This document shows, piece after piece, positions 1,469 through 40,742 of a DNA stretch of 41,302 nt. Every line of letters begins with the position of its first letter. Positions within the stretch are counted from its first letter, which is position 1. The notes under the pieces were generated by a model. The model was not told the origin of the DNA and did no database searches. It saw nothing but the letters and a program-made list of their open reading frames with translations. The translations under genes were made by a program, and so were the position numbers. Origin of the DNA: an archaeon (GTDB lineage: Archaea > Iainarchaeota > Iainarchaeia > Iainarchaeales > 1-14-0-10-31-34); contig JBDRIL010000061.1 in the NCBI GenBank assembly GCA_043815885.1, forward strand, positions 1 to 41,302. The letters run 5' to 3'.

Positions 1469-1561
1469 TAAAACATTATAATCAATATTAGAGCCTTTTG
1501 GGGTGAGATATATCCAAGGGGTTCTATTTTTCGTGTAAATTTTTGAGAGGTGAAAAAAAAC

Positions 1562-11601: not shown

Positions 11602-13997
11602 TTACTTCTTTTTCCTCATTTTGGCTTCTTTTTTTGCAATAACCAGCTTCATTTTCACTATTGAATCAGGATTCAATGAAATTGAATCAATCCCCTGCCC
11701 AACTAAAAATTCCGCAAATTCAGGGAAATCGCTTGGCGCCTGCCCGCAAATCCCAATCTTTTTTTTCTTCTTTTTTGCTGCCTTTATGGTCATTTCAATT
11801 AATTTCTTTACTGCCTCATTTCTTTCATCGTATATATGTGAAACCAGGCTTGAATCCCTGTCCAAACCCAAAGTCAATTGAGTTAAATCATTCGAACCAA
11901 TAGAAAACCCGTCAAAGATATCAGCAAACTCTTCCGCCAGAAGTGAGTTGGAAGGAATTTCGCACATAACATATACCTCCAATCCATTTCTTCCTTGAAC
12001 CAATCCATTCTTCTTCATTTCTGCTATTGATTTCTTCCCTTCTTCCACTGTCCTGCAGAATGGAATCATTACTGTTACATTAACTAAACCCATTTCCTCT
12101 CTCACTTTCTTTATTGCAGCACACTCTAAAGCAAACCCCTCTCTAAAGGCAGGAGAATAATACCTTGAAGCGCCTCTCCAGCCGATCATTGGGTTTTCTT
12201 CCTTTGGTTCTGAACTCCTCCCCCAACAAGGTTAGCGTATTCGTTGGTTTTGAAATCAGACAGCCTAATGATTACGTCTTTTGGATAAAAGGCAGCAGCA
12301 ATCATAGACACTCCCTCAGCAAGCTTATCAATAAAGAACTGCTTTTTATCCTTATAACCTTTAGTGATTTCCTCAATCTCTTTTTTTACTTTCTTGTCTT
12401 TCAATTTATTGAAATTAATTAATGCAATCGGATGCACTTTAATGTAGGAACTGATAATGAATTCCTCTCTCGCTAACCCTACCCCGTCATTCGGAATAAA
12501 GCTTAACTCAAACACCTTTTCGGGATTGCCTATATTCATCATTATCTTTGTTCTTGTTTTAGCTAATTTCTTTAAATCAGTCCTCCTTATACTGAAATCA
12601 AGCAATCTATCATAAATAATCCCTTCCTTTCCTCCACTGCAATCAACAGTAACATTTCTTCCATTAGGAATGGCTCTCGTTCCATTATTAGTTCCAACAA
12701 CACACGGAATTCCCAGCTCTCTACTTATGATTGCGGAATGGCAGGTGCGGCCGCCTTTATTTGTTACAATTGCTGAAGCAATCTTCATTATTGGTTCCCA
12801 GTCTGGATCAGTGATATCAGTAACCAGTACTTCGCCTTTCCTGAATAAACCTATTTCTTTTGGGCTCTTAATTATATGTGACTTTCCTTTTCCAATCTTT
12901 TCTCCAACGCTAATGCCTCTTGCAAGCACCTTCCCTTTTGCCTTTAAACGATATTCTTCCAGTAAATTCTCGCTCTTCGCTGCCTGAACTGTTTCAGGCC
13001 TTGCCTGAACAATGAATAATTCTCCATTCTTTCCATTCTTTGCCCACTCGATATCCATTGGCTTTCCATAGTGTTCCTCAATAACACAGGCCCATTTTGC
13101 AAGCAAAGTTATTTCTTTATCATTTAAGGAAAATTTTTCCCTATCTTTTTTCCCTACTTCAACTTTCTTTGTCGGTTTAGTGGATTTATTTGAATAAATG
13201 ATTTTTGTTTTCTTTTCTCCAAGAGTCTTCTTCAAAATAGGTTTCTTTCCTTTTTTCAGTGTCGGCTTGAATACAATGAATTCATCTGGGTTAACGCTTC
13301 CCTGAACAACACTTTCTCCCAGCCCCCAGGAAGAATTAATCAGCACCACATTCCTGAAACCAGTTTCAGTATCAATTGAAAACATGACCCCGCTTGAAGC
13401 AAGGTCAGATCTAACCATTTTCTGCACTCCAACAGAAAGATAAACAGAAAAATGACCAAAGCCCTTATCTGTCCTGTAAGAAATGGCCCTGTTTGTGAAA
13501 AGCGAAGCAAAACACTTCTTCACAGCTTTCAGTAATTCTTTCTCTCCCCTTATATTCAGAAAGCTTTCCTGCTGCCCGGCAAAACTCGCTTCAGGCAAGT
13601 CCTCAGCTGTAGCCGAACTCCTTACAGCAACATCTGTATTCTTTCCATATTCTTTCTCCAATTTATTGTATGCATTTACTATCGCTTTCTCTAAGTCGTT
13701 CGGAAGCTTTTCTTTCAGAATCATTGTTCTAACGCTTTGCCCTTTTTTCGTTAAGTCTTTCATTTTATGCGTATTCAATCCCTTTAATTCCTTTTTAGCT
13801 TTATTCCATAAACCAGTTTTATTCATAAAATAATTATAAGAATAAGCAGTTACAGCAAAACCATTAGGAACCTTTATTCCCTTAGAGGAAAGCTTTCTGT
13901 ACATCTCTCCGAGAGATGCATTCTTTCCTCCAACCATTCCTACGTCCTTGATTCCAAGCTGATTAAACCATAGAATGAATTCTTTTTTCTTGCTTAT
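11602..13997 (-). pseudogene. ppsA: Phosphoenolpyruvate synthase, disrupted (frameshift at about 12210-12232; conserved N-terminus lacks a canonical start codon)
   Basis: ORF 12186-13937 carries [56 protein letters not shown]. The -1 frame resumes [17 protein letters not shown]...GSNDLTQ...ICGQ (11602-12210). The repaired gene would be about 798 aa. Could be an assembly error. Confidence 0.85.
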
Positions 13998-22320: not shown

Positions 22321-22986
22321 ATGTGGACTGCAAAGATGAAGTTCTGGCATGCTTATTCATTGGTTATTAATAGGGCAAAGAAATTTAACCTAACTATCCT
22401 GGCTTTTCCGATGAATACCTATGTAAAGGGAAAGAAGGCGCATTTAACTACCGGGCACTTGGTGATTGGAGAGGAAAAAGCAAAACAAGCCTACTTTGAT
22501 TCACTGAAAAAAGACAAGAGAATAAAGAATTTAGAGATTGAAGGAGACTTTGCTGCTTACTCCTTTGAAGCCTCAATGAAAGAAAGCCATCTGCAGATGT
22601 ATTTCACTCCAGAAATAATGTTCATTAAACCAGTCGTAATAAAGCCAGACGGATTTGAGTACATAGAGATTGCTTCCTGGAACAAGGAAAACCTGACTAA
22701 CTTCTTCAAAAAGGTAAAGAAATGGCTGAAGATTGAATCCTTTAGCATTAAAAATGAAAAAATAACTGATATTTACATTCCTCACTTAATGCCAAAACTC
22801 ACAGAAAAACAAAAGAAAGCAGTTCTCTTGGCTTTTCAGAACGGCTACTACGATTACCCAAAAAAAGTAAATATAGGAAAACTAGCAAAGGCAATGAAGC
22901 TTTCCCCCTCTACTTTTCAGGAGCATTTAAGGAGAGCAGAAGAAAAACTAATGCCTTTCCTGCTTGAAAACCTTCTCTCACGATAA
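22321..22986 (+). CDS. HTH_10 (bacterio-opsin activator-type C-terminal HTH) transcriptional regulator
   Basis: C-terminal LTEKQKKAVLLAFQNGYYDYPKKV..LAKAMKLSPSTFQEHLRRAEEKL is the HTH_10 signature. Probably leaderless (TATA-like TTTTATTT about 30 nt upstream). Confidence 0.9.
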   Translation: MWTAKMKFWHAYSLVINRAKKFNLTILAFPMNTYVKGKKAHLTTGHLVIGEEKAKQAYFDSLKKDKRIKNLEIEGDFAAYSFEASMKESHLQMYFTPEIMFIKPVVIKPDGFEYIEIASWNKENLTNFFKKVKKWLKIESFSIKNEKITDIYIPHLMPKLTEKQKKAVLLAFQNGYYDYPKKVNIGKLAKAMKLSPSTFQEHLRRAEEKLMPFLLENLLSR

Positions 22987-22993
22987 GCTAAAA

Positions 22994-23028
22994 TACCCCG
23001 TTATTCATCGGGTAAATTTCTTTAAATA
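22994..23028 (+). promoter_or_regulatory. Palindromic operator TACCC-N11-GGGTA immediately upstream of TATA box TTTAAATA
   Basis: TACCC (22994-22998), GGGTA (23010-23014), TATA at 23021-23028; directly downstream of the HTH_10 gene. Confidence 0.6.
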
Positions 23029-23090
23029 CCAAAGCCCCCAATTATATTAACAAGTTAACTCAAACGAGTTAATTTGTCGGTGGGGAAATA

Positions 23091-23432
23091 ATGGCAGCTC
23101 CTTTGAAGCTTGTTGAAGCAAAAAACATTGAACTTACAGTTGAACCAGATAAACTACAGTACCAGACAAGGAAAGAACTAGGAAGAGAGTACTTTAAATG
23201 GCTTGCAAGAATAGAAGGCCTTAAAGCAAAGTACTATGGTTTTGTTGCAATTGACGCATTAGTTTTATTTGCCGCATTCATAATTGATTTATCACTAATG
23301 TTTGCACTTATTGTGCTTATTCCAATGACTTTAAAGGCACAGTTTGATTATGGAGACAAGCTTGATGACAAACAAATTTGGGAAGGAAAATATGTTACAA
23401 GGGTTGACTGCTTTGAGTCAAGCCCTGAATAA
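23091..23432 (+). CDS. Small membrane protein A (paralog of 23452-23838)
   Basis: Hydrophobic hairpin; shares P..LQ..R..GR.YFK and KA.F.Y...K.V.R.D with the next ORF; SD GGTGGGG. Confidence 0.75.
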   Translation: MAAPLKLVEAKNIELTVEPDKLQYQTRKELGREYFKWLARIEGLKAKYYGFVAIDALVLFAAFIIDLSLMFALIVLIPMTLKAQFDYGDKLDDKQIWEGKYVTRVDCFESSPE

Positions 23433-23451: not shown

Positions 23452-23838
23452 ATGGCCTACGTGATGATTCATGGAGAAACCACCGATATTAACTTTGACC
23501 CAAAACAGCTTCAGAGATGGAAGAGGGATAAAGTTGGAAGAGACTACTTTAAAATGAAGTCCACTGAGTTATTCAGATGGATTGTGTTCTGGATAATTCT
23601 AGCAGGATTTGCCTTTTTTGCATTGCTTTCCTTTGCTGAAACAGCATTTATGATTCCTGCCATTATATTGTTTTTTGCCATGGTTAAGGCTCATTTCTGG
23701 TATTTGAAGGCGTGGAGTAAATGGAACAAATTTGCAAGAAAAAGTGTAGTGAGAATGGATCTCCCGAAAGAGGACAGGGTGATCGTTCCTCCAAAAATGC
23801 CTTGGGTTCCCTTAAAGGGAGTAAGAAAAGGATTATAG
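23452..23838 (+). CDS. Small membrane protein B (paralog of 23091-23432)
   Basis: Strong SD GGAGGTGA; hydrophobic hairpin; motifs shared with the previous ORF. Confidence 0.8.
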   Translation: MAYVMIHGETTDINFDPKQLQRWKRDKVGRDYFKMKSTELFRWIVFWIILAGFAFFALLSFAETAFMIPAIILFFAMVKAHFWYLKAWSKWNKFARKSVVRMDLPKEDRVIVPPKMPWVPLKGVRKGL

Positions 23839-23864
23839 TAAAGGATTCAGTCTTTCAGGTAAAG

Positions 23865-23880
23865 GCAAAACCTTTATTTA
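23865..23880 (+). promoter_or_regulatory. Possible internal BRE/TATA promoter for the phospho-His gene array
   Basis: GCAAAACC-TTTATTTA (TATA-like 23873-23880), similar in style to the promoter before 22321. Confidence 0.4.
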
Positions 23881-23933
23881 TCCCAAGGCCTTATATTCAA
23901 AGTATTGGATAGTTATAGTTAGGTTGAATTAAA

Positions 23934-25451
23934 ATGAAGCTAAGCGTTCTCGCGAAAGATATAGGTTCCCCTTTAATGCATCCGGCTGCTTATGCTATAG
24001 GAGAAAACCATTCAAAACTGGAAAAACTGCTTGGAATCAAGATTGCAAAAAGCTTTGAACAGTACAGGAACAGGGACCTAAGGTTTCTTTTCACTGAAAA
24101 AGCATTCTTAAGGGAAGAAAAAAGAACAGCGCAGTTATTGCAGAGCAAGGCATTCTTCAATAAAGTGGAAAAAAATAGCCTTCACTCAATTAATAATTTA
24201 TTGGCTGAAGCAATGAAAGCAGGAAAAAATCCAGAAAGACTCTCAAACAAGCAGATTGCAACTCAATTCAATAAATTATTTAATTCATGGATTGAAATGA
24301 ATTTCTGGGGCCATGTGGTAAATCTTTCTGATTTCCACTTCAATGTATTAAGCGATAAATTAATCAATGCACTTGAAGAAATAAAGAAAGAAAAAAACAT
24401 TAAGCTTTCAGTTGGAAAGACTTTCTCTAAATTAATAGTAATGAAGAAAAAAACAGAAATCCAGAAACAGGACATTAATTTCTTTAAACTCCTTTCCATG
24501 ATTCAAAAAAACCAGGAATCCATTGATTTATTTAAATCAGGCTTGAATGAAATACAATCCAAATTAAAGCATTTCCCAAAAATAGAAAAGGCAATAAAAA
24601 GCCACACAAAAAAATACGACTGGATGCAGTATCATTATGATAGCCAAATAATCCTTGATGAAAACCATTTCATTGAACTGTTCTCTGGTAATGTAAAGAA
24701 GGGATTGAAGGGAGAAAAGAAATTAAGGGAATTCAGGGAACACGATAAAAAATCCTTGAGTGAAAGAAAAAAATTGATTAAAGAACTTGAACTGGATAAG
24801 GAATTTCTTTACTGGCTGGAAGTTGCCCAGAGCTTTATGTACTTAAAGGCCTTAAGAAAAGAAGTATCCTTCCAATCAAACAGGCTTGCCCATCCACTTA
24901 TTTGCGAAACATCCAAAAGGCTTTCAATAAGCCCAACCCAGTTAAGGCATTTAACTATAGAGGAATTAATTGAAGCCTTGGAGAAGAATAAAGTAAATGT
25001 TAATTTATTGAATGAAAGGATTAAGCACTGCATTGTTTCAGCCGAAAAAGACAGGCTGGTTATTATTTCAGGAGATAAAGCAGAAAAATTCAGCAAGAAA
25101 ATCAAGGGAACTGTGTTAAAAAGAATAAATGAAATCTACGGTACAGTAGCCTACCCTGGTTTTACTCAGGGAATTATAAAAATAATTGAAAAACCCGAAG
25201 ACATGGCTAAAATGAATAAAAAAGACATTCTTGTTTCTTCTGCCACAAACCCCAACCTTCTTCCAGCAATAAGGAAGGCAGCAGCAATAATTACAGATGA
25301 AGGAGGAATCACCTGCCATGCAGCAATTGTAAGCAGGGAATTAAAAATCCCCTGTGTAATTGGCACAAAGATTGCAACAGAAGTCCTTAAGGATGGTTCA
25401 TTGGTTGAAGTGAACGCAACCCATGGAAAAATAAAAATATTAAAAAAGTGA
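23934..25451 (+). CDS. Dikinase substrate-binding + phospho-His swivel subunit, paralog 1
   Basis: About 390-aa helical N-region plus C-terminal PEP-utilizer mobile domain: TNP..AAAIITDEGGITCHAAIVSRELKIPCVIGT. Confidence 0.85.
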   Translation: MKLSVLAKDIGSPLMHPAAYAIGENHSKLEKLLGIKIAKSFEQYRNRDLRFLFTEKAFLREEKRTAQLLQSKAFFNKVEKNSLHSINNLLAEAMKAGKNPERLSNKQIATQFNKLFNSWIEMNFWGHVVNLSDFHFNVLSDKLINALEEIKKEKNIKLSVGKTFSKLIVMKKKTEIQKQDINFFKLLSMIQKNQESIDLFKSGLNEIQSKLKHFPKIEKAIKSHTKKYDWMQYHYDSQIILDENHFIELFSGNVKKGLKGEKKLREFREHDKKSLSERKKLIKELELDKEFLYWLEVAQSFMYLKALRKEVSFQSNRLAHPLICETSKRLSISPTQLRHLTIEELIEALEKNKVNVNLLNERIKHCIVSAEKDRLVIISGDKAEKFSKKIKGTVLKRINEIYGTVAYPGFTQGIIKIIEKPEDMAKMNKKDILVSSATNPNLLPAIRKAAAIITDEGGITCHAAIVSRELKIPCVIGTKIATEVLKDGSLVEVNATHGKIKILKK

Positions 25452-26980
25452 CTCTTATGAAATGGGTTAAAATAAATGAAGACCACAATGTATATGTTTT
25501 TCCTTATTATTTGTTCGCGAGATGCTGGGGAAAGAGAATAAAGCCAATGCTGGGGGAGAACTATGACAACATTCAATTGGTTTTTAAGGGTTCAACCTGC
25601 TGGTACTACGGAGAACCAACCCAATATGAAAGGTTAGGAAAGAAGGTTTTCGAAAAAATACTGAAAGAAAAATTCGATTATAAATTCGATGCAGAGACAA
25701 GAAAGCACTTGGAAAAAGTAATAAAAAAATCTGATTCTCTCTTAAAGACTGACTTCAGCAAAAAAAGCAATAACGAATTGGGAAGAATTTATTTAGATTT
25801 CTCTAATTTAATTGAGGAATTAAATTCCTGGGGGCAGATGGTAAGCATAATGGAGTATGGCCATAACAACTTTGTTTCAGGCGGTTTGGAAGAATACCTG
25901 GCAGAACAGGCAAAGAAACTGGATTTAAGCACTTCTTTCGCTAAAGACACATCTGTAATGATCACCCCCACAGAAGAAACCTTTATGAGAAAGGAAAGAA
26001 GGGAAATTCTGGATTTAGCCAAAAAAATTTCTTCCAGAAACAATGCATTCAATGAATTCACTAAAAAACCGGAAGAAATACTGAAGAACCTAAAAAAATA
26101 CCCTAGAATAAAGAAAAAAATCGAAGAAATAAACAAGAAGTATTGCTGGATTGCTTTTGGTTACATTGGTCCAGCATTAACTGAAATCAATTTCATCAGA
26201 GAACTCCAATCAGTTCTTGCCTCAAAGAAAACCGTTGCAGAACAGAAAAAAGAATTTGAGAATGAATTCAAGGAGATAGAATCTCTTCAGCATGAATTAG
26301 AAGAAGGGTACAAGGTAAATAAGGAATTCAGGAGAAGGTTTGAGGTTGCAAGAAAATGCATGTTCTTGAAGGAATACAGGAAACAGGGATTATTCAAAGC
26401 CTTTTATTCCCTGGAAAAACCCCAGAAAGAAATTGCAAGGAGATTATCCATTTCATTGGAACAACTCAGAACCCTTCTTCCGGAAGAAGCATTTGAAGCA
26501 TTAAAGAAAGGAAAAATTTCTGCAAGTGAATTGAATTCAAGGCTGAATCTGTGTGTTTTTGTGGTTAAAAATGGAAATACCTTTGTTGCTTCGGGAAAAA
26601 AGGCAGAAAAACTGGCAAACAAATTCCTAAGCGAACAGAAAAAATTTGCAAAAATAAAGGAATTAAAAGGCAATTGTGCTTCTCCAGGAAACGCAATAGG
26701 AAAAGCAAAAATCGTTCTAGGAACTTCTCACCTCTACAAACTAAAACAAGGAGACATTCTTGTATCAATCCAGACAAACCCGCAAATGGTTCCCTCTCTT
26801 AAAAAGGTTGCAGCCATTGTAACAGATCAGGGAGGAATAATCTGCCATGCAGCAATAATCAGCAGGGAACTAAAGATTCCCTGTGTAATCGGAACCAAAG
26901 TAGCCACAAGCGTAATAAAGGACAACCAGATTGTAGAGGTAAATGCAACTGACGGAATCGTAAAGGTACTGAGGAAGTGA
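25448..26980 (+). CDS. Dikinase substrate-binding + phospho-His swivel subunit, paralog 2
   Basis: TDQGGIICHAAIISRELKIPCVIGT; GTGA overlap with paralog 1 (alternative ATG at 25457). Confidence 0.85.
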   Translation: MTLMKWVKINEDHNVYVFPYYLFARCWGKRIKPMLGENYDNIQLVFKGSTCWYYGEPTQYERLGKKVFEKILKEKFDYKFDAETRKHLEKVIKKSDSLLKTDFSKKSNNELGRIYLDFSNLIEELNSWGQMVSIMEYGHNNFVSGGLEEYLAEQAKKLDLSTSFAKDTSVMITPTEETFMRKERREILDLAKKISSRNNAFNEFTKKPEEILKNLKKYPRIKKKIEEINKKYCWIAFGYIGPALTEINFIRELQSVLASKKTVAEQKKEFENEFKEIESLQHELEEGYKVNKEFRRRFEVARKCMFLKEYRKQGLFKAFYSLEKPQKEIARRLSISLEQLRTLLPEEAFEALKKGKISASELNSRLNLCVFVVKNGNTFVASGKKAEKLANKFLSEQKKFAKIKELKGNCASPGNAIGKAKIVLGTSHLYKLKQGDILVSIQTNPQMVPSLKKVAAIVTDQGGIICHAAIISRELKIPCVIGTKVATSVIKDNQIVEVNATDGIVKVLRK

Positions 26981-26987
26981 AAGAAAA

Positions 26988-28439
26988 ATGGAATGGATTG
27001 AATTAACCAGAAAGGGGAAACCACTTCCTATATTATTGATTGATGCAGCAGCAATGGGCTTCAATAACCATTTCTCAGAATTCCACGACAAAAAAACCAG
27101 AATAACTAATTTCAGGCAGGCATTTGGAGCAAGGTGGATGCCAAAAAAAGACTGGAATAATTACGTAAGGGTTTACAGAGCGAACGAAGACAAGATTATT
27201 TTTTGGATGGATTTATGGCTAAAGCAATTCCTTGAATTAAAGAGATTCACTGAAAAAGTAAACAAAATGAATTTAACAAATAAATCCAGCAATCAATTGA
27301 AGCAGTTATTCAAAAAATACTTTGAATTGAATTCTAAGGCGTGTTCTTTTGCATACGATTACAGGGCGGTGGGGGAAGTCTATCCGGAAAAAATAAATTC
27401 ATTCCTGAAAGAAAAAGCAAAAGACTCTAAGGAATTGAATGAGTGCATTAAAACAATCTTCTCTTTGGATAAACCAATTGAAATGCACAGAGAAAAAATG
27501 AATTTACTGAAGATTGCAATAAAATCAAAGAGAGTAATGCTTAAAGGCAAAGGAATTGAAAATGCATTGGAAAACCATTCCAAAAGATTCGGTTTTTTGG
27601 GGACGTATATTTTTTACGGGGAACCAATTGAAGCAAAGGATTTTAAGAAAAAATTAAAGAACTTGGCTAAAAAACCTCTCTCCAAATTAGAAAAAGATCG
27701 GCTCAAGGAAAAGAACCGCTTTAAGGAAAACAAAAAAGAAACAAAGGAAATAATTAAAAAATTCAGGCTCTCAAAAAGCGAGGCAAGAAAGATAAGAGAC
27801 ATTAAGGTTTCACTTCACACTTCAATGATCTGCGATGAATACTATACCTACACTTCTTTCAAGATAAGGCCATTGCTTTTTGAAATAGGAAAACGCTTCA
27901 GCCTTTCATATAACCAATTAATTGAAATGAGGAATGAAGAAATTCTTTCCTTGTTTGAACGCAAGCTGAATAAAAGGGAATTAAATGAAATTAATTCCAG
28001 ATTCAAGGATGCTGCAATAATCCTTGAAAAAGGGAAAACCAAAGTCATTACAGGAAAAGAGCTTGAATTGTACTCCAAACCTTATCTAGCTGAAATGAAA
28101 AAAATAAAGGGATTAAATGAAATTAAAGGGGAAACAGCTTTTCCGGGAAAAGTAAAGGGAAGGGTAAACATTATTGGAAGAGTCACAGACCTTCCCTCAT
28201 TCAGGAAAGGAAATATTCTGGTTACTGGGTCTACTCTCCCCCAGTATGTTCCTGCAATGAAGAAAGCATTGGCTATAATTACAGACGAGGGGGGAATGCT
28301 GAGCCATGCAGCAATAATGAGCAGGGAATTCAAAAAACCCTGCATAATAGGGACAAAAATTGCAACAAGAGTATTGAGAAATGGAGATTTTATTGAGGTA
28401 AATGCTTCTGGAGGAATTGTCAGGAGGATAAACAAATGA
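26988..28439 (+). CDS. Dikinase substrate-binding + phospho-His swivel subunit, paralog 3 (most divergent)
   Basis: TDEGGMLSHAAIMSREFKKPCIIGT; 483 aa. Confidence 0.85.
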   Translation: MEWIELTRKGKPLPILLIDAAAMGFNNHFSEFHDKKTRITNFRQAFGARWMPKKDWNNYVRVYRANEDKIIFWMDLWLKQFLELKRFTEKVNKMNLTNKSSNQLKQLFKKYFELNSKACSFAYDYRAVGEVYPEKINSFLKEKAKDSKELNECIKTIFSLDKPIEMHREKMNLLKIAIKSKRVMLKGKGIENALENHSKRFGFLGTYIFYGEPIEAKDFKKKLKNLAKKPLSKLEKDRLKEKNRFKENKKETKEIIKKFRLSKSEARKIRDIKVSLHTSMICDEYYTYTSFKIRPLLFEIGKRFSLSYNQLIEMRNEEILSLFERKLNKRELNEINSRFKDAAIILEKGKTKVITGKELELYSKPYLAEMKKIKGLNEIKGETAFPGKVKGRVNIIGRVTDLPSFRKGNILVTGSTLPQYVPAMKKALAIITDEGGMLSHAAIMSREFKKPCIIGTKIATRVLRNGDFIEVNASGGIVRRINK

Positions 28440-29968
28440 GTAAAAAACATGATTGGTTTATTGCTGAAGAAATTTCCAGAACGCACTATCATTTGCTTGA
28501 ACCAGTTTTAAATTATTGGGGGAACTACTTAGAAAAAGACATTGGGATAAAATTAAACGTAATGGCAGTTTTCAGGAAAGGAGACATGTGCATTATTTGG
28601 GGGAGAAAAAAATTCACGGAAGCCGGAAAAAGAATGTTAAAAAAAACTCTTGATAACCCAAAATGGTTTTTGAAAAAGGACAGCGACTTGGAAAAAACAG
28701 CAAAAGAACTAATTAAGTCTTCAAAAAAACTGCAAAAAACCGATTTCTCTAAATCATCAGATGAACAACTAGAAAAAATTTTTTCAAAACACATGGAAGT
28801 GCACTTCAAATGTCATGTATTGGGCATGCCCATGACAATCATTGAATGGGAGCATGAACTTTTGACAAATTACTTAACAAATTATTTGAATAAAAAAATC
28901 AAAGAAAAGAATATTCCATTAAAGGCAAGGGGGGCTTTTAGTTTATTGACAACCCCCATTAAAGATTCCTTTCAGTTAAAAGAAGAAAAAGAGGCCATTA
29001 AAGTGGCTTTAAAGATTTTAAAAGATAAAAAAATCAAACAACTTTTCATAAAAGAAAAACCAAAAGAAATAATTGAATTATTGCCTTCAACAAACAAAGA
29101 AATTGATAAAGAAATCCATTCCCTTCACAAAAATTATTCATGGTTGCCTTACATGTACATTGGTCCAGCATGGGAAAAGAGTTACTTTATTGAACAAATA
29201 AAAAATTTATTGAGAGATGAAAAAGAATTGCCAAGGCTATTGGAAAAAATGAATAATAGAGTGAAGGAAGTTAAACAAAAGCATAAAAACTTATTTAAGA
29301 AACTTTCAATTGATAAAAAGCATCAAATTCTTTTACGAATTTTAAGAGAGAATGTTTATTTAAAAGGATTAAGAAAAGACTCACTTTACTTCTCTTTTTA
29401 TTCCTATGAACCCTTACTTAAAGAGATTGGAAGAAGGCTTCATCTCTCCTTAAATCAATTAAGGTTTATGTGGCCAAGTGAATTCAGGGAAGCCATTTTA
29501 GAAAAAAAATTTGATCCAGATGAATTAAACGAGAGATACAAATTTAGCGTTTACGTTTGCATTAATGGAAAAGACAAAACAGTGACTGGGAAAAAAGCTG
29601 AATTTTACGAAAAACAAATCCCTAACCCAAAAGATTATAAAATAACTGAGTTGGAAGGAAGCACAGCTGTTCCGGGGATGGTTAAAGGGGTTGTTAAGAT
29701 TATTAATGTTCCAGAAGACGTATCTAAAATGAGAGAAGGAGATGTAATGGTCAGCCATTCAACTAACCCTAATTTAGTTCCTGCAATGAAAAAAGCTGGA
29801 GCAATCGTTACAGACATTGGGGGCATTACTTGTCATGCCGCAATCGTTAGCAGAGAGTTAAACATTCCCTGCGTAATAGGCACAAAGATTGCCACAAAGG
29901 TATTCAAGGACGGGGACCTAATTGATGTAAATGCAAATCACGGCATTGTAAAAAAGGTGAAGAAGTGA
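28436..29968 (+). CDS. Dikinase substrate-binding + phospho-His swivel subunit, paralog 4
   Basis: TDIGGITCHAAIVSRELNIPCVIGT; ATGA overlap with paralog 3. Confidence 0.85.
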   Translation: MSKKHDWFIAEEISRTHYHLLEPVLNYWGNYLEKDIGIKLNVMAVFRKGDMCIIWGRKKFTEAGKRMLKKTLDNPKWFLKKDSDLEKTAKELIKSSKKLQKTDFSKSSDEQLEKIFSKHMEVHFKCHVLGMPMTIIEWEHELLTNYLTNYLNKKIKEKNIPLKARGAFSLLTTPIKDSFQLKEEKEAIKVALKILKDKKIKQLFIKEKPKEIIELLPSTNKEIDKEIHSLHKNYSWLPYMYIGPAWEKSYFIEQIKNLLRDEKELPRLLEKMNNRVKEVKQKHKNLFKKLSIDKKHQILLRILRENVYLKGLRKDSLYFSFYSYEPLLKEIGRRLHLSLNQLRFMWPSEFREAILEKKFDPDELNERYKFSVYVCINGKDKTVTGKKAEFYEKQIPNPKDYKITELEGSTAVPGMVKGVVKIINVPEDVSKMREGDVMVSHSTNPNLVPAMKKAGAIVTDIGGITCHAAIVSRELNIPCVIGTKIATKVFKDGDLIDVNANHGIVKKVKK

Positions 29969-31500
29969 GCAGAGAAAATGACTGGTTTTCAATGGAGTCA
30001 CTTAGAAGAATTAGTCCATTCCATTTAGTCGGCTTTTTCAGGCACTGTTGCGTTGATTTGAATGAGCTTTATGGAATAAGGCTTGATGGGGCCTGCTCTT
30101 TTCACGGAAAGAACACCGAGCTTCTCTTCAACAAAAACCAATTCAATAGTGCAGCAAAAAAATCACTTAAAATAATAATTAAGAATCCAAAAATAATGGT
30201 TGATGAACACAATAAATTAATCAGGGCAGCCAACAGATACAAGAAAGCTGCACAGAGAATTCTTAGAACTGATTTAAAGAAGCTTTCAAAAAAAGGGCTT
30301 GCAGATTTATGCACTGAATACGCAAAAGCATATCATGCTTCCCATGGAAGGTATGGAGGCCACTTGCTTCAGCTAACGGAATTTGAGAACGAGTTATTTA
30401 CTAAATTCATTCATTCCATTTTAGAGAAAAAAATTAGGAAACACAATTTAACTGAATCTGTGGGAGAAGCTTTTGCGCTTGTTTCGACCCCAGAAAAACT
30501 CACAAACATTCAAAAACAGGAAATTGAATTATTCAATCTTTATTTAGAGTTACTGAAAAAACCTAAATCGCTTAAATTCTTCAGAAAGCATTCAGAAAAA
30601 GAAATAGAAAAAAAGCTCTCTTCTTTGGATTCATCTTTTTCAAGAAAAATTAACAGACACTGCAATAAATGGCTGTGGCTTCCCTATATGTATGAAGGCC
30701 CTCCCTGGGAAAAGAGTTACTTTATTGGAGTTCTTTCTTCCATGGCAAGACAGTACCTCACTGAATCAGAAGTAAACCTAAAAAAAGGGGAATCAAAGGA
30801 ATTAATTAAAAGAAAAAGGGGATTCATGAAAAAACTCCCTTTAAATGAAAAGGAAAAGATTTATTTCAAGTTATTGTCTGATTCTGTTTACCTCAAGAGC
30901 TATAGAAAGGATGTAATGTATTATGCGTGTTTTGCTTCAGAGAAATTATTTTCCGAGGTTGGAAGAAGGTTATTTCTTTCCTTAAACCAGGTAAGGCATT
31001 TCATTCCAGGAGAAATAAAACAAGCAATCCTCTCAAACAAATTTTCAATTCAAGAATTAAATAACAGGATTGATTTTACTGTAATTAAATGGATTAACGG
31101 AAAAGAAGAAATTTTAACCAAAGAAAAAGCAAGAGCTTTTTTCAACAAAGTATTCAAATCAATGAAGATAAAAAAAGTAAATAAATTAACTGGAAGCACT
31201 GCTGTTCCAGGCAAAGTTAAAGGAACAGTGAAAGTAGTCAATCATCCAAATGAAATCTATAAAATGAATAAAGGGGATGTAATGGTCAGCCATTCAACTA
31301 ACCCTAATTTAGTTCCTGCAATGAAGATTGCTTCAGCAATCATTACAGATGTAGGAGGAGTTACTTGTCATGCAGCAATTGTAAGCAGGGAATTAAACAT
31401 TCCATGCATTATCGGAACAAAGGTAGCCACAAAGATATTCAAGGATGGAGACAAAGTTGAAGTGAATGCGACAAAAGGAATAATAAGGAAATTGAAGTAA
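29965..31500 (+). CDS. Dikinase substrate-binding + phospho-His swivel subunit, paralog 5
   Basis: TDVGGVTCHAAIVSRELNIPCIIGT; GTGA overlap with paralog 4. Confidence 0.85.
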   Translation: MSRENDWFSMESLRRISPFHLVGFFRHCCVDLNELYGIRLDGACSFHGKNTELLFNKNQFNSAAKKSLKIIIKNPKIMVDEHNKLIRAANRYKKAAQRILRTDLKKLSKKGLADLCTEYAKAYHASHGRYGGHLLQLTEFENELFTKFIHSILEKKIRKHNLTESVGEAFALVSTPEKLTNIQKQEIELFNLYLELLKKPKSLKFFRKHSEKEIEKKLSSLDSSFSRKINRHCNKWLWLPYMYEGPPWEKSYFIGVLSSMARQYLTESEVNLKKGESKELIKRKRGFMKKLPLNEKEKIYFKLLSDSVYLKSYRKDVMYYACFASEKLFSEVGRRLFLSLNQVRHFIPGEIKQAILSNKFSIQELNNRIDFTVIKWINGKEEILTKEKARAFFNKVFKSMKIKKVNKLTGSTAVPGKVKGTVKVVNHPNEIYKMNKGDVMVSHSTNPNLVPAMKIASAIITDVGGVTCHAAIVSRELNIPCIIGTKVATKIFKDGDKVEVNATKGIIRKLK

Positions 31501-31516
31501 ATGTTTAGGAGGTATT

Positions 31517-32461
31517 ATGATGCAATTTGTTTCGCCTTTTAGTAAGCTGAACAGAAGCAGTGTGTCAATTGCCGGAGGAAAAGGAGCACAGTTGGGAGAG
31601 ATGTACAGTAAAAAAATTCCTGTTCCGAATGGTTTTGCTGTATTGACTGATTCATTCAATTTATTCTTAAAGGAAAATAAATTGGAGGAAGCAATAGAGA
31701 AAGAATTGAAGAAAGTAAATGCAAAGAAAACTGATTCAGTGAATAATGCCTCAAAAAAAATCCGTTCAATGATTGCAAGAGGAAAAGTCCCAAAAGAAGT
31801 GGAAAAAGCAATTCTCCAACAATTCAATGAATTGAAAGCAAAATATGTTGCTGTAAGGAGTTCTGCTACAGCAGAGGATGCAAAGGATGCTTCCTGGGCG
31901 GGAGAACTTGAAACATATACAAATGTAGTGAAAAAGGATTTAGTGGAAAAAGTAAAAACCTGCTGGGGTTCATTGTTTACCCCCAGAGCGATTTTTTACA
32001 GGATAGAGAAAAAACTGAAAGGAAAAGAAGTGAGTGTAGGGGTTGTTGTCCAGAAAATGATTGAATCAGAGGTAAGTGGTGTAGCATTTACAGTTAACCC
32101 AGTAACCAATAATGAAAATGAAATAATTATTGAGGCAGCCTATGGTTTGGGAGAGAGTGTTGTAGGAGGAACGGTAACCCCAGACAGATACACTGTAAAT
32201 AAAAAAGAGAATTTCATTGAAAACATTGAAATAAATGCACAGGAAAAAATGATTACATTAGTGAAGGGAAAAGAAAAAGAAATAAAGGTAAAGGATTCAG
32301 AGCAGGAAAACCAAAAGCTTTCAGGAGAGCAAATAATGAAGTTATCTGAAATGTGCAATAATATTGAAAGAATCTATAACTTCCCTCAGGACATTGAGTT
32401 TGCTTTGGAGAAAAATAAGTTCTTTATTCTCCAAACCCGCCCAATAACAACTCTTAAGTGA
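31517..32461 (+). CDS. Stand-alone PPDK/PEP-synthase N-terminal ATP-grasp subunit
   Basis: AGGKGAQLGEM, VPNGF, VAVRSSATAED, SWAGE, VVVQKM, SGVAFT, GLGESVVGG..PD, QDIEFA; ends LQTRPITTLK* with no His domain. SD AGGAGGT. Confidence 0.9.
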   Translation: MMQFVSPFSKLNRSSVSIAGGKGAQLGEMYSKKIPVPNGFAVLTDSFNLFLKENKLEEAIEKELKKVNAKKTDSVNNASKKIRSMIARGKVPKEVEKAILQQFNELKAKYVAVRSSATAEDAKDASWAGELETYTNVVKKDLVEKVKTCWGSLFTPRAIFYRIEKKLKGKEVSVGVVVQKMIESEVSGVAFTVNPVTNNENEIIIEAAYGLGESVVGGTVTPDRYTVNKKENFIENIEINAQEKMITLVKGKEKEIKVKDSEQENQKLSGEQIMKLSEMCNNIERIYNFPQDIEFALEKNKFFILQTRPITTLK

Positions 32462-32465
32462 ATTT

Positions 32466-33071
32466 TTAAATGAATCCAAGGCGCTTTAATTCTTCTCTCA
32501 ATTCAGGAACTGACCTGAATTGAATTGCGTGAATCCCTAGATTAGCTGCAGGAGGAAGGTTTTCTTCATGGTCGTCCACAAAAACACATTTATCTGCTTT
32601 TACTCTCAATTCCTTTAACATCATTTGATATATTTTTGCATTGGGTTTCGTTACTCCATATCTTCCGGAAACAGCCTTTACATCGAATATTTCATCCAAA
32701 CCGAATTTCCTTTCAAACAACTTATACGCTTCCCAGTTAAGGTTAGAGCACACGCCCACTAACCGATTCTTCCTTAATTCCCTTAATAATTCCTTGAAGC
32801 CAGGCCTCATAAATATTTCTTCTGTATAGAATTCCCCTGAAAAAACCACTCCTCCCAGATCAAATACCACTGCTGAATCCAGATAGAATTTCCTGTAACC
32901 TCTGACAATAATAACTACAAAAGAAGCAATAATATAGGTTGCAACCAGAATTACTGCCAATTCATATAAATTCTGAAAATTGAATCTTCCGGTTGAATAA
33001 AGAAAGGCTATAAAGACAAAAGTAAGCAGTACTCTCGACAATGAAAGCCTGAAAAAACTCCTTAACTGCAT
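32466..33071 (-). CDS. Membrane-anchored HAD-superfamily hydrolase (YihX-like motifs, little or no cap)
   Basis: Two N-terminal hydrophobic segments; FDLGGV (motif I), CSN (II), KP (III), FVDD..EN (IV). Confidence 0.8.
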   Translation of the reverse strand: MQLRSFFRLSLSRVLLTFVFIAFLYSTGRFNFQNLYELAVILVATYIIASFVVIIVRGYRKFYLDSAVVFDLGGVVFSGEFYTEEIFMRPGFKELLRELRKNRLVGVCSNLNWEAYKLFERKFGLDEIFDVKAVSGRYGVTKPNAKIYQMMLKELRVKADKCVFVDDHEENLPPAANLGIHAIQFRSVPELREELKRLGFI

Positions 33072-37448: not shown

Positions 37449-40400
37449 TTATGATTGTGGGGCTGATTGAATGACTGACCGTTTTTTCTTTTTTATTTCA
37501 AACATTACGATTGATATTATGATTAGTGTGATTATTGTTGCCGTTATTATTGCTGTCCAGTTGAGTTCATTTGTTTTTAGAGGACAGTCTTGAGGGCAGA
37601 CTGAAGGACTTTCTTCTGTGTCGCATACATTGTTTCCACAAGAACTTTTTGGGGTTTCTTTTATTGTTTTTATTTCTTGTTTTTGTGTTTTGTATCCTTC
37701 TTTTAGTGCTATTATGTTTGTCAGGTTTTTTCTTGCTGTGAATAAGGTTATTCCTTTTTCGTTTGTTGTTCTTTCCAACAAACCGTATTTTATTCTAACG
37801 TCTTTCACTGGATTTCCTTTTCCGTCAACTACTTTTACTTCAAAGGTTTTTCCTTCAATTAGTTCCTCTGAAATAATTATTTTTAGTGTTATTTCTTTCG
37901 GTACTTCTGTCAAGCAGTCTTGCGGGCAGCTTTCAATTGTTTCTGTTGTATCGCATACATTGTTTCCGCATAAACTGGTTCCTGTTGGTTCTATTATTAC
38001 TTGAATTGTTTCTGTAATAAAACCTTGTTTGGTTACAGTAATGCTTGTTTCGTTTAATTTTGCCGTGAATGAAACTGTTCCGTTTGAGTCTGTTGCTTTT
38101 TTTTGTTTTGCGTATTCTGCTGTTGCGTTGTTTACTGGAATGCTTGTGCCTTTTCTTAGTATTGTTATTGTGAATTCTTTTCCGTCAATCAAGTAATCTG
38201 GAGTTTTTATTGTGAAGTTGTATTGGCTTCCTCCTCCGCCACCCCCTCCTCCCCCGTTTCCTCCAGGGCTTCCCCCGCAACCGGAAATTGGAGTGAAAAT
38301 GCAGGAACCATTAGAACAGGAATCAGTAGTGCAGTCATTGCTGTCATTGCATGTTATTCCACAGCAGGAATCATTTTTTGTGCAAGAACCCCAAATATTT
38401 TGGTCTGTGCAAGTTTGTGTTCCGGCACAACTTTCAATTGTGCATGAGCGTGTTTGGCTTGCATTACAGTCTCCGCAAGCTCTTGTTTCGGTTATAGTGT
38501 AATTGTTTGCATCGCAATAGTTTAAGTCATTGCAAGTTCTGTTTTGTGTTTCATTCAAGCATTGAGTCCATTCACTGCAATTCCAGTCTGAAATGCATGC
38601 ATTGTTTACATCCACTGTTATTGGAGTGCTTGTAGTGGTATTGTTTGCGTAGTCTCTTGCTACTACAGTCAAGTTATGATCTCCATTAGAAACCAAACCA
38701 GTGTTCCAAGAAACACTGTAAGGAGTTATACTGTCTTCTGTGCCTAGATTATTTCCGTCAACTTTAAACTGAACTCCAGCAACTGCATTATTGTCAGAAG
38801 CACTGGCAGTAATAGTTATAGTGCCAGAAACAACAGCTCCATCCAAAGGAAAATCAATGTTTACAGTTGGGGGAATGCTGTCTACTGCAGCTGTTGTAGT
38901 TCCGTTTGGCACATTGCTTAAGTCTGACCAGTTAGAGTTATCGTCAACTGTTTTTAAAGCAAAATAGTAAGTAGTGCTGGGATTCAAGTTATTGACAGTA
39001 ATTGATTGAACAGTTCCAGCTGCAAGAGGGACAGGCTCGCCAGAAACTTGAACCGCAGAGGACCAATTAGAAGAATTAATCACTGAAGTAGAATACCTTA
39101 AATCATACTGGAAAGCAGTTCCAATATTTCCATCATCTCCAGGAGCAGTCCACTTCAAAAAAATACTATTAAATGTAACACTAAAAACATTCAAGTCAGT
39201 CACATTACCAGGAGGAGTGGTATCACCAAAAATATTGTTCACATTCACCGTCACAGGGTTGCTTGTGGTTGTGTTTCCTGCGTAGTCTCTTGCTGTGGCT
39301 TTTAGAGTGTGATTTCCGTTTGATGTTGTGTTTGTGTTCCAGTTTGTACTGTAAGGGCTTGTTGTGTCTTCTGTTCCTGTATTGTTTCCGTCTATTTTGA
39401 ATTGTACTCCTGCTACTGCATTGTTGTCTGATGCTGAAGCCGAAATTGTAATGGTTCCTGATACTGTGGAGCCGTTTGCTGGGGAGGTGATTGATGCTGT
39501 GGGTGGAGTGTTGTCGGCGTTATTGACGTTGACTGTTATTGGATTGCTTGTGGTTGTGTTTCCTGCGTAGTCTCTTGCTGTGGCTGTTAGAGTGTGATTT
39601 CCGTTTGATGTTGTGTTTGTGTTCCAGTTTGTACTGTAAGGGCTTGTTGTGTCTTCTGTTCCTGTATTGTTTCCGTCTATTTTGAATTGTACTCCTGCTA
39701 CTGCATTGTTGTCGGAGGCATTGGCTGTGATTGTTATTGTGCCTGATACTGTGGAGCCGTTTGCTGGGGAGGTGATTGATGCTGTCGGGGGGTTTGTATC
39801 AGGCAAGGCAACAGAAAAGGAAATCAAGTAGTCGTCAGTGTTAGCGTTTCCTGCTTGATCAATGCATTTAACGTAATAGTTGTAAATGTTCCCATTTTGT
39901 AATCCAGTTACAAGAGTGGAGTGAGTTGTTCCTCCTGTAGTAGAAAATGCGTTGCTCATTGATGAATAAGAAATCCCAGGGGACATTGAATACTTGCAGG
40001 TTGCGTTCTCGTTGGTTGTTAAAGAAACTGTTGTTTGAGTGGTTCCTGCTGGGAGAGTTCCTGAAGGTTGGCCATTGTTTCTAACTGGAGGGGTAGTGTC
40101 TGATCCATTTGCTGTATAATTCACATACAATATTGGTTTGTAAGTATCAGTACCTATGTCCCAAGTATAAGTCTCAAATGTAGAACCAGACAAGCACTTA
40201 AAGAGAAACATTATTGCGTTTCCACTCTGCCAATTATCCCTGTTAACTATCTCTTGTATTAAAGTCTTAAGCTCAGGAGTGGAGTGCCTTATGTAAGGGT
40301 TAGCAAACTCTTCATCCCAAGATACAAGGGCAGTAGTTCTCCTATTCCATCTCTCACTCAAATCAAAACCATGTCCATTATAAGTACAGCCGCTTTGGAT

Positions 40401-40742
40401 GACAGTAGCATTATCTGCGTCCTCGCTTGCTATTTCAACTATAACATGATTGTATATCCCTCCCCATCCATGAAGACTTATGTATGCAGAATTTATTGTA
40501 GCTCCTTTAGGGATAGTTAAATTTGGGATTCTATATGCCCCGCCCCACCTGTACCACGGAAAACCAGCCTGTAATTCCACATAAGTATAATTGGTGTTAA
40601 CGCAACCTTCGCCGCCTGTAGCTTCTTGTCCATCGTCTTCACTTTGGCCGCCATATAATTGCAGTTGTACTGTGTCAGCATTCACTTGAATACAAAAATA
40701 GATGATTGTCAAGACTATAAATATAAAAACAATTTTTTTCAT
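37449..40742 (-). CDS. Large membrane-anchored surface protein: signal peptide, beta-sandwich N-domain, three bacterial Ig-like repeats, FN3-like domain, Cys-rich modules, poly-Gly linker, C-terminal TM
   Basis: Repeats of PPTASITSPANGSTVSG..ASDNNAVAGVQFKIDG..ARDYAGN; WTAPGDDG..Y.LRYS..YYFALK FN3-like segment; two CGNNVCD..E...CPQDC repeats; C-terminal TM followed by KKKKR. Confidence 0.85.
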   Translation of the reverse strand: MKKIVFIFIVLTIIYFCIQVNADTVQLQLYGGQSEDDGQEATGGEGCVNTNYTYVELQAGFPWYRWGGAYRIPNLTIPKGATINSAYISLHGWGGIYNHVIVEIASEDADNATVIQSGCTYNGHGFDLSERWNRRTTALVSWDEEFANPYIRHSTPELKTLIQEIVNRDNWQSGNAIMFLFKCLSGSTFETYTWDIGTDTYKPILYVNYTANGSDTTPPVRNNGQPSGTLPAGTTQTTVSLTTNENATCKYSMSPGISYSSMSNAFSTTGGTTHSTLVTGLQNGNIYNYYVKCIDQAGNANTDDYLISFSVALPDTNPPTASITSPANGSTVSGTITITANASDNNAVAGVQFKIDGNNTGTEDTTSPYSTNWNTNTTSNGNHTLTATARDYAGNTTTSNPITVNVNNADNTPPTASITSPANGSTVSGTITISASASDNNAVAGVQFKIDGNNTGTEDTTSPYSTNWNTNTTSNGNHTLKATARDYAGNTTTSNPVTVNVNNIFGDTTPPGNVTDLNVFSVTFNSIFLKWTAPGDDGNIGTAFQYDLRYSTSVINSSNWSSAVQVSGEPVPLAAGTVQSITVNNLNPSTTYYFALKTVDDNSNWSDLSNVPNGTTTAAVDSIPPTVNIDFPLDGAVVSGTITITASASDNNAVAGVQFKVDGNNLGTEDSITPYSVSWNTGLVSNGDHNLTVVARDYANNTTTSTPITVDVNNACISDWNCSEWTQCLNETQNRTCNDLNYCDANNYTITETRACGDCNASQTRSCTIESCAGTQTCTDQNIWGSCTKNDSCCGITCNDSNDCTTDSCSNGSCIFTPISGCGGSPGGNGGGGGGGGGSQYNFTIKTPDYLIDGKEFTITILRKGTSIPVNNATAEYAKQKKATDSNGTVSFTAKLNETSITVTKQGFITETIQVIIEPTGTSLCGNNVCDTTETIESCPQDCLTEVPKEITLKIIISEELIEGKTFEVKVVDGKGNPVKDVRIKYGLLERTTNEKGITLFTARKNLTNIIALKEGYKTQKQEIKTIKETPKSSCGNNVCDTEESPSVCPQDCPLKTNELNWTAIITATIITLIIISIVMFEIKKKKRSVIQSAPQS
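39259..39785. repeat. Near-identical 285-bp-period tandem duplication encoding two Ig-like domains
   Basis: 39259-39500 versus 39544-39785 are almost identical at DNA level (about 170 nt with a two-base difference, then a further 44-nt identical block). Confidence 0.92.

Follow-up and report, generated by a model that had tools for sequence, protein, structure and literature searches.

The 41,302 nucleotides analysed here (hereafter the window) form a contig from the genome of an archaeon of the phylum Iainarchaeota, a 1.16-Mb assembly of 62 contigs that is 91.7% complete. Genes for topoisomerase VI, aRF1 and diphthamide synthesis mark the organism as archaeal. The window carries an operon of six genes (Table 1) that probably encodes a split small-molecule dikinase, in which five phospho-histidine subunits (hereafter modules) share one ATP-grasp subunit. 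The five module genes are tandem paralogs in which the PEP-utilizers mobile domain, or swivel (PF00391; PEP, phosphoenolpyruvate), is C-terminal and the sole Pfam domain (E 2e-23 to 1e-22), whereas the gene that follows them matches only the PPDK_N ATP-grasp domain (PF01326, E 2.5e-99, profile positions 2-312 of 328), with no second Pfam domain. Custom hidden Markov models (HMMs) for ATP-grasp and TIM barrel matched none of the five paralogs, and neither Pfam nor the custom HMM finds a PEP/pyruvate TIM barrel (PF02896) in any of the six operon genes. A preliminary description of this DNA had proposed such a layout, with five tandem paralogs of 483-511 aa that lack an ATP-binding domain, a single ATP-grasp-only gene behind them and no pyruvate TIM barrel, so that the operon would not encode a PEP synthase; open reading frames (ORFs), Pfam and the custom HMMs bear this out.

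Table 1 Genes of the operon and of its flanking cassette in the window
Feature	Position	Strand	Details
Module 1 (paralog 1), predicted RPH-like acceptor-binding domain and phospho-His swivel	23934..25451	+	505 aa; PF00391 at 428-498
Module 2 (paralog 2), architecture of module 1	25448..26980	+	510 aa; orthogroup with G013, G045
Module 3 (paralog 3), same fold family; deviant catalytic block; GGMLSH His motif	26988..28439	+	483 aa
Module 4 (paralog 4), structure-modelled; core orthogroup with G012, G013, G015, G017	28436..29968	+	510 aa
Module 5 (paralog 5), core orthogroup with G012, G013, G015	29965..31500	+	511 aa
Stand-alone ATP-grasp (PPDK_N), proposed shared 'charger'	31517..32461	+	314 aa; PF01326 only
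HTH_10 (Bat-type) probable regulator with N-terminal BAT/GAF-like domain	22321..22986	+	PF04967 E 5.6e-21
orf113, two-helix membrane hairpin, paralog of orf128	23091..23432	+	113 aa; from translation
orf128, two-helix membrane hairpin	23452..23838	+	128 aa; from translation
Membrane-anchored HAD-IA hydrolase	32466..33071	-	PF00702 E 3.3e-17; two N-terminal hydrophobic helices

The genes are tightly packed. Three of the four paralog junctions are 4-nt overlaps (GTGA at 1/2, ATGA at 3/4 and GTGA at 4/5), as had been described, and a gap of 7 nt separates paralogs 2 and 3; paralog 2 has an alternative in-frame ATG 9 nt downstream, whose use would abolish the 1/2 overlap. Between paralog 5 and the ATP-grasp gene lies a 16-nt spacer containing GGAGG. 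The swivel motif GGxx[CS]HAAIxSRE, described earlier as intact, is present in all five paralogs, which are otherwise diverged, with 29-35% identity to paralog 1 over the whole length and 22-27% over the N-region (roughly the first 400 residues). Short, low-depth contigs derived from groundwater sequencing runs of two studies match the stretch and span the 1/2, 3/4, 5/ATP-grasp and ATP-grasp/HAD junctions. One X1 contig connects position 25373 with 31447, with 21 foreign letters and a 21-letter side, and is most likely a cross-assembly between paralog swivel domains.

Across the whole genome there are two matches to PPDK_N, six to the swivel and five to the N-region. The sole other PPDK_N belongs to a canonical PEP synthase of the organism's own, encoded 10 kb upstream in the window (11602-13937, minus strand). 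Two ORFs with a 4-nt overlap make up this PEP synthase: the one at 12186-13937 (583 aa) has the ATP-grasp domain, the swivel and the start of the TIM barrel, the other (11602-12189, 195 aa) the remaining barrel (PF02896 positions 105-291), a state that could reflect a real split, a frameshift or an assembly error. Among the matches listed in a PPDK_N search of the phylum, most are likewise canonical PEP synthases of ~800 aa.

The N-regions have the fold of a known phosphotransferase domain. An AlphaFold (AF2) model of paralog 4 (predicted local distance difference test (pLDDT) 92.4, predicted template modelling score (pTM) 0.87) has the rifampin phosphotransferase RPH-Lm as its top Foldseek match in the PDB (5fbt, E 1.8e-13, 463 columns). 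With VIA-align, model residues 1-509 align with residues 324-867 of the 5fbt chain at Z 19.4 and a root mean square deviation of 5.5 Å over 439 aligned positions, and the N-region alone (model 1-397 against 5hv3 323-749) reaches Z 12.2 with 332 aligned. Identity to RPH-Lm is 16-18%. RPH is reached from the N-region sequence by profiles only: residues 563-866 of Listeria RPH are matched with E 1.4e-32 by a profile built from 41 modules, and phmmer with the paralog 4 N-region alone returned no match among PDB sequences at E up to 1. The best PDB sequence matches of the swivel part are archaeal PEP synthases. By these structural and profile matches, each paralog corresponds to the RIF-binding-type domain of RPH followed by its swivel domain; comparison with the rifampin-binding domain, suggested in the preliminary description, thus returned that fold.

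The modules are nevertheless remote from curated families. The NCBIfam models of RPH, PRK06241 and PigC extend past the swivel into the N-region (paralog 2 residues 250-508 align with RPH model positions 607-864, paralog 4 residues 185-506 with PigC 543-880), but their scores are far under the cut-offs. The RPH equivalog NF041857 (cut-off 999 bits) is not reached: the ATP-grasp subunit scores 264.5 bits and the modules score 50-73. The modules also score 56-69 bits against 1300 for PigC and 48-71 against 1350 for RedH. The ~600-aa PRK08296 models, which we presume to cover PpsA-like proteins, align with only the last ~105-130 module residues (57-103 bits against cut-offs of 578-730). Four homologues from a library of 1.84 billion proteins (three of ~605 aa and one fused protein of 829 aa) reach no curated NCBIfam cut-off, and the PRK08296 models align with their swivel part only. 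Our custom N-region HMM matches module 1 with E 7e-155.

All 74 modules collected at 21 loci, the window and 20 related ones, retain the swivel His. In RPH, the block Arg666-Glu667...Lys670 is essential by mutagenesis, according to the available part of PMC4844700; it aligns with K-x-x-R-K in paralogs 1, 2, 4 and 5 (K-[AEGS]-[LY]-R-K, with K-A-L-R-K in paralog 1, K-E-Y-R-K in 2 and K-S-Y-R-K in 5), which keep Lys670, have Lys for Arg666 and carry Glu667 in paralog 2 only. Paralog 3 reads S-M-I-C-D, and the subgroup neighbouring its orthogroup R-x-x-E-[ED]. Since the paralog 3 group as a whole has S-x-x-C-D, acceptor-site chemistry appears to be altered in at least one orthogroup. The ATP-grasp subunit and the N-domain of the organism's own PEP synthase share 41% identity. 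Seven of seven aligned ATP-grasp sequences, PEP synthase included, have unchanged GGK and VAVRSSATAED blocks, and by reading rather than alignment they would correspond to RPH Lys22 and Arg117.

To place the five copies in evolutionary context, we built a tree of 74 modules (IQ-TREE quick mode, LG+G4, SH-aLRT support only, midpoint root) from 77 input rows, three of which (the PEP synthase swivel and two long rows) were dropped for length. Paralogs 2-5 group with their own orthologs from related genomes (G012, G013, G015, G017 and G045) with SH-aLRT of 99-100, and the next relatives of these orthogroups are sequences from other families. Paralog 2 joins rows of G013 and G045 (99-100), paralog 3 those of G012 and G013 (100), paralog 4 falls in a clade of seven rows (100) and paralog 5 in one of five rows (100). 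Paralog 1 has no close ortholog among the relatives sampled, and its end branch measures 0.86. Gene order differs as well, with 4 then 5 in the window and 5-like then 4-like in relatives, and the module sets vary between genomes. With four of five paralogs having orthologs of their own, the copies are old, kept distinct, and gained and lost singly, a pattern that fits different specificities better than redundancy.

Arrays of this kind recur across the phylum. Searching 215 of its genomes with a profile of the five N-regions, we found matches in 58, and in 17 of the 58 high-quality genomes. From the best matches, 20 loci were chosen and annotated with the custom HMMs, which covered N-region, swivel, ATP-grasp and TIM barrel. 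With the window included, two or more modules occur at 18 loci; 12 of these carry an ATP-grasp domain, a 13th (G019) has a fragment of one at a contig end, and contig ends truncate three of the remaining five. The preliminary description had named arrays usually found without a stand-alone ATP-grasp gene as a way to refute its reading; the outcome is in its favour, an ATP-grasp, whether stand-alone or fused, being present at 13 of the 18 multi-module loci. The ratio of modules to ATP-grasp domains among relatives runs from 2:1 up to 8:1. The window's own family repeats its layout with the ATP-grasp gene last, behind five modules in G012, five and four in the two loci of G013, five (one of them split) in G017 and two in G015, and the array of G157 also ends with an ortholog of the stand-alone gene.

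In other families, the ATP-grasp domain is fused to the first modules of the array. A 2388-aa protein of G124 joins it to four modules, with four more in the following genes; one of 1839 aa in G134 joins it to three, with three more following; one of 1312 aa in G162 joins it to two, with one more in the preceding gene; and one of 1462 aa in G112 joins it to two, with no further modules seen. The library of 1.84 billion proteins holds 3733 matches to the N-region profile at E up to 1e-3, of which 534 reach 1e-30. Of the best 150 among the 3733, 11 contain several N-region stretches; they are 860-2309 aa long, and ten carry two to four PF00391 stretches. In P0020, PPDK_N sits between the third and fourth module. 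Some library matches are named Woesearchaeota or Diapherotrites, and close homologues of the modules are named Micrarchaeota. Fusions between ATP-grasp domain and modules are classical evidence that the separate proteins work together, and the proposal of one ATP-grasp subunit common to five modules, as first put forward, gains support from these multi-module fusions and from the conserved docking patch described below.

Some loci deserve a remark of their own. The two G013 arrays (L040 on G013:C101 and L041 on G013:C36) have near-identical corresponding modules (tree end branches 0.03-0.09), and could stem from recent duplication or from two strains sharing the bin, whose contamination is 3%. 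The split, paralog-4-type module of G017 (L043:6265-8069) lies in two overlapping ORFs, an N-part of 229 aa and a C-part of 377 aa, and is possibly a pseudogene or a frameshift. The stand-alone ATP-grasp of G157 (L049:4242-5060) is only 272 aa long, its C-terminal part with the DIEF...RPIT block being absent, and at G045:C11:20371-22890 the two halves of a PPDK_N match lie ~1.5 kb apart in one 1354-aa frame. In G112, an array-side ORF (L047:2-2356) has intein splicing and LAGLIDADG domains; inteins seem to be common near these genes in the phylum.

If one subunit serves five modules, a shared docking surface would be expected, and structure prediction offers a candidate. We predicted the complex of the ATP-grasp subunit (7-row alignment), ATP, Mg and paralog 4 (41-row alignment), a check proposed for each paralog in the preliminary description, and obtained a median score of 0.70, compared with 0.01 for the best of three controls; the mark for this score is reached by 116 of 157 solved complexes and by 2 of 215 mismatched pairs. 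The runs have at least 86% of contacts in common, with a partner pLDDT of at least 84, and the confident contacts join ATP-grasp residues 231-239 and 264-274 with module residues 329-341 and 361-369. The 22 contact residues form the best-conserved portion of the module N-region, with a mean pairwise identity of 0.50 among the five paralogs, compared with 0.23 for the other 327 ungapped N-region columns; the contact stretches contain 6 of the 15 invariant columns (hypergeometric p 1e-4), and 3 of 308 sliding windows of the same shape reach the observed conservation. A [KR]-R pair stands in the docking stretch of all five modules. The contacted ATP-grasp strand is acidic (E-N-F-I-E-N-I-E) in the window gene and four orthologs, and Lys-rich in the organism's own PEP synthase. 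The predicted surface thus has the pattern that would be expected if five diverged enzymes docked on one dedicated partner and not on PEP synthase, although as evidence this is circumstantial.

The array is embedded in a small cassette. Upstream of it lie the probable regulator, whose N-domain is named HVO_2525_N/BAT-type in Protein Atlas structure rows, and two small membrane proteins, orf113 and orf128, that match each other and no Pfam or NCBIfam family; for orf128 the best Protein Atlas feature scores 0.87, with none at 0.9 or above and no family named. The same regulator and small proteins precede arrays in G012, G015 and G017 (family f1), G045 (f9) and G157 (f19). A TATA-like AT-rich element, TTTATTTAT, lies ~50 nt before the module 1 ATG (window 23839-23933) and another, TTTAAATA, upstream of orf113 (window 22987-23090), so that the small membrane proteins and the array may each have a promoter of their own.

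Downstream, the gene of a membrane-anchored HAD hydrolase converges on the operon, the stop codons lying 4 nt apart. Its orthologs follow the arrays in G012, G015 and G017, adjoin the array on the same strand in G157 and, in G019, lie on the same strand directly upstream of a module; in P0100 (721 aa, a 7-member cluster), a module is fused to this kind of HAD. Seven of these HADs (window; L039, L043, L048, L049 and L052; P0100) all read D-x-[GS]-G-V in motif I, D-x-G-G-V in the window; all seven keep the nucleophile Asp, the S/N, the Lys (K-P) and the DD, and have lost the general acid/base Asp at +2, so they may prefer substrates with good leaving groups. Two hydrophobic helices at the N-terminus are a further trait in this family. 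Other phosphohydrolases take a similar position elsewhere: a His_Phos_1 gene adjoins the G124 array, an HD-domain gene overlaps a module gene in G019, and the G160 array has beside it a hydrolase of the MBL fold, not assigned to a class. Counting HAD, His_Phos_1 and HD genes and excluding the MBL-fold, seven loci from four families have a phosphohydrolase neighbour, those of the same family not being independent; none was seen at the G134, G112, G162 and G189 loci. From these neighbours we infer that dephosphorylation of products or of the phospho-enzyme would be part of what the system does. The best PDB relatives of the HAD profile include the HAD domain of drimenol synthase, YihX and the N-terminal phosphatase of soluble epoxide hydrolase, a weak lead towards lipid or isoprenoid phosphates as substrates, since these are generic HAD-IA matches.

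Elsewhere in the window are two large surface-type proteins, one of 973 aa (1550-4471, plus strand) with an S-layer outer domain and one of 1097 aa (37449-40742, minus strand) with Big_7 Ig-like repeats and an fn3 domain. The PADLOC defence models matched no family for any of the ten cassette proteins, and there is therefore no support for a known anti-phage system.

The product of the locus is probably a small-molecule dikinase that is split and multiplexed, of the HpeHI/CreHI/PpsAB kind, in which the five modules share one ATP-grasp subunit. The 314-aa ATP-grasp subunit would bind ATP, and the swivel of any one of the five modules would dock on it, its His taking the beta-phosphate while ATP is converted to AMP + Pi, as in RPH, PpsAB and HpeHI. 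The charged swivel would then swing back to its own RPH-like N-domain and pass the phosphate to a hydroxyl-bearing acceptor bound there, the basic docking patch being kept in all five modules for the one ATP-grasp partner. As the N-domains are old and separately conserved, they probably bind different acceptors. The Bat-type regulator, the small membrane proteins and the membrane-anchored HAD that travel with the array suggest a membrane location for its activity and a later dephosphorylation step, acting on the phospho-products or on the phospho-His itself.

Several observations count against this interpretation or loosen its support. The 18 multi-module loci are not independent, because we chose them ourselves from the best matches and four come from one family. 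In G189 there are eight N-region matches and a single PPDK_N, which lies inside a 787-aa RPH-like fused protein, and G181 (86% complete) has seven N-region matches and no PPDK_N. Glu667 of RPH is not conserved among the modules, and the paralog 3 orthogroup lacks the basic block in all four rows (S-x-x-C-D), so that at least one module may use another chemistry or be inactive as a transferase. The high score of the predicted complex possibly reflects the model's memory of RPH structures, which were solved as one chain; our own alignments and ligands put the run outside the calibration of the tool, which holds only roughly; and the interface came from a prediction that itself uses conservation, while something else, for example docking of the module's own swivel, could account for conservation of the contact stretch. 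In the window genome, the HAD gene is on the opposite strand. Finally, the sequencing runs for the stretch are three groundwater DNA sets, and no RNA set was found among them.

Instead of a panel for unrelated substrates, the five modules could be steps of one pathway on one scaffold, phosphorylating different positions of a single polyol, glycan or lipid, or activating hydroxyl or carbonyl groups for condensation in the manner of PigC/RedH. This is a minority reading that we judge unlikely. It draws on the single, tightly coupled operon, on modules 4 and 5 being neighbours in all four array-bearing genomes that have both, on the alignment of the PigC and RedH models with parts of the N-region and on the phosphohydrolases associated with arrays. 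Against these stand the differing complements of close relatives, with two modules in G015 and five, of different membership, in G012 and G013, which fit independent gain and loss better than a fixed pathway. Paralog 1 has no close ortholog, the PigC and RedH scores are far under their cut-offs, and the cassette contains no other biosynthetic genes.

Phosphate could also flow in reverse or sideways, the modules taking it from host or environmental phospho-metabolites and passing it between substrates or, through the ATP-grasp subunit, to AMP + Pi to make ATP. HpeH alone transfers phosphate between two phenolic substrates without its ATP-grasp partner (PMC12167813), in some relatives modules are numerous and ATP-grasp genes few or absent, and a 1.16-Mb genome suggests dependence on imported metabolites. 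Even so, we regard such a flow as quite improbable, given that by established thermodynamics ordinary phosphate esters are too low in energy to yield ATP from AMP + Pi, that the ATP-grasp is retained or fused at 13 of 18 loci and that the adjoining phosphatases would waste the phosphate.

Least probable of all, and very much so, is a sensor or phosphorelay in which the N-domain binds a ligand and the phospho-His signals to the small membrane proteins, the HAD or the regulator with no small-molecule product: the regulator and two small membrane proteins conserved with the array, HADs without the +2 Asp in seven of seven (a loss that might go with substrates whose leaving group is good, phospho-His among them) and the missing catalytic basic block of paralog 3 would fit it, but four of five modules keep the R-K that RPH needs for small-molecule transfer (PMC4844700), the characterised relatives with this fold are, in PMC12167813 and PMC4844700, all small-molecule kinases or ligases, and arrays of families f14, f21 and f32 lack both the small proteins and the HTH_10 regulator.

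The six genes take up ~8.5 kb, or 0.7% of the 1.16-Mb genome. The module family occurs in a quarter of the sampled phylum genomes (58/215), and N-domain proteins number in the thousands in public data, some of them annotated as PEP synthase or phenylphosphate synthase. If one ATP subunit does charge many phospho-His enzymes, it would be a new route to substrate range, a kinase with exchangeable heads, and would correct metabolic reconstructions, such as that in PMC8091004, in which these genes are assigned to gluconeogenesis or phenol degradation. The acceptors could show what uncultured symbionts take from their surroundings or defend against in them. More speculatively, and in our estimation a long shot, a battery of one charger and many acceptors combined with a phosphohydrolase, and here also with membrane proteins, could be a general device of ultra-small DPANN and CPR symbionts for handling molecules that they are unable to make, for instance a membrane-side cycle of phosphorylation and dephosphorylation that captures or remodels host lipid, isoprenoid or cofactor alcohols, each module serving one compound class and being gained, lost or fused as the host changes.

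Parts of this gene family have been seen before under other names. In databases, relatives go by 'PEP-utilizing enzyme' or 'phosphoenolpyruvate synthase', probably a misnomer. DPANN genes of this kind were annotated as phenylphosphate synthase, with the missing carboxylase remarked on (PMC8091004), and rph-like genes were counted in CPR (PMC8651080), although the available sections of these two papers do not describe the layout. We found no description of the one-to-many or fused multi-module form in the full-text literature, supplements aside, and terms for the layout were not found in the DPANN genomics papers PMC8204110 and PMC12892359; the preliminary description, likewise, knew of no characterised 5:1 system. 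New here are the predicted basic docking patch facing an acidic strand specific to the stand-alone ATP-grasp, the deviant catalytic block of the paralog 3 orthogroup, and the cassette of regulator, membrane proteins and HAD, together with the module-HAD fusion.

Among characterised enzymes, the closest in organization are HpeHI of Rhodococcus, CreHI of Corynebacterium and the phenylphosphate synthase PpsAB of Thauera, in which, as the accessible part of PMC12167813 presents them, a separate ATP-grasp protein is paired with a partner that has an RPH-like substrate domain and a C-terminal swivel with the GGxxxH His. The preliminary description had cited PpsAB and CreHI as 1:1 splits and RPH and PigC as fused relatives, in agreement with that source. 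In HpeHI, the ATP-grasp HpeI is separate from the RPH-like, swivel-bearing HpeH, no stable complex was seen and changing the catalytic His abolishes activity (PMC12167813), and in the window, too, the subunits would be expected to meet in a transient, electrostatically steered complex. Members of the HpeH/CreH/PpsA clade share about 45% pairwise identity (PMC12167813). The differences are equally plain: those systems are 1:1 pairs of ~600 aa and ~350 aa that act on phenolics in bacterial aromatic catabolism, whereas here a DPANN-type archaeon has five ~500-aa modules with one ATP-grasp and no aromatic pathway in the vicinity, relatives of the window fuse two to four modules to the ATP-grasp, and the predicted interface has the reverse polarity of HpeHI's, with an acidic ATP-grasp and a basic module.

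RPH-Lm (PDB 5FBS, 5FBT, 5FBU, 5HV1) shares with the modules the order of substrate domain then swivel and, in four of five, the R-K part of the catalytic block, but is a single chain of 867 aa with an ATP-grasp of its own, whereas here the domains are split over genes; nothing in the comparison suggests rifamycin as a substrate. PEP synthase has homologous ATP-grasp and swivel domains and differs in its TIM barrel, which none of the six genes encodes. The prodigiosin ligases PigC, RedH and HapC, members of the superfamily with all three domain types, are fused single chains in which phosphorylation drives condensation. Because the NCBIfam cut-offs are unapproached, the 1:1 pairing is broken, the RPH block is partial and the TIM barrel is missing, the system appears to lie outside every named family, and the best-supported account of it is a widespread and undescribed one-to-many version of a known two-part kinase.

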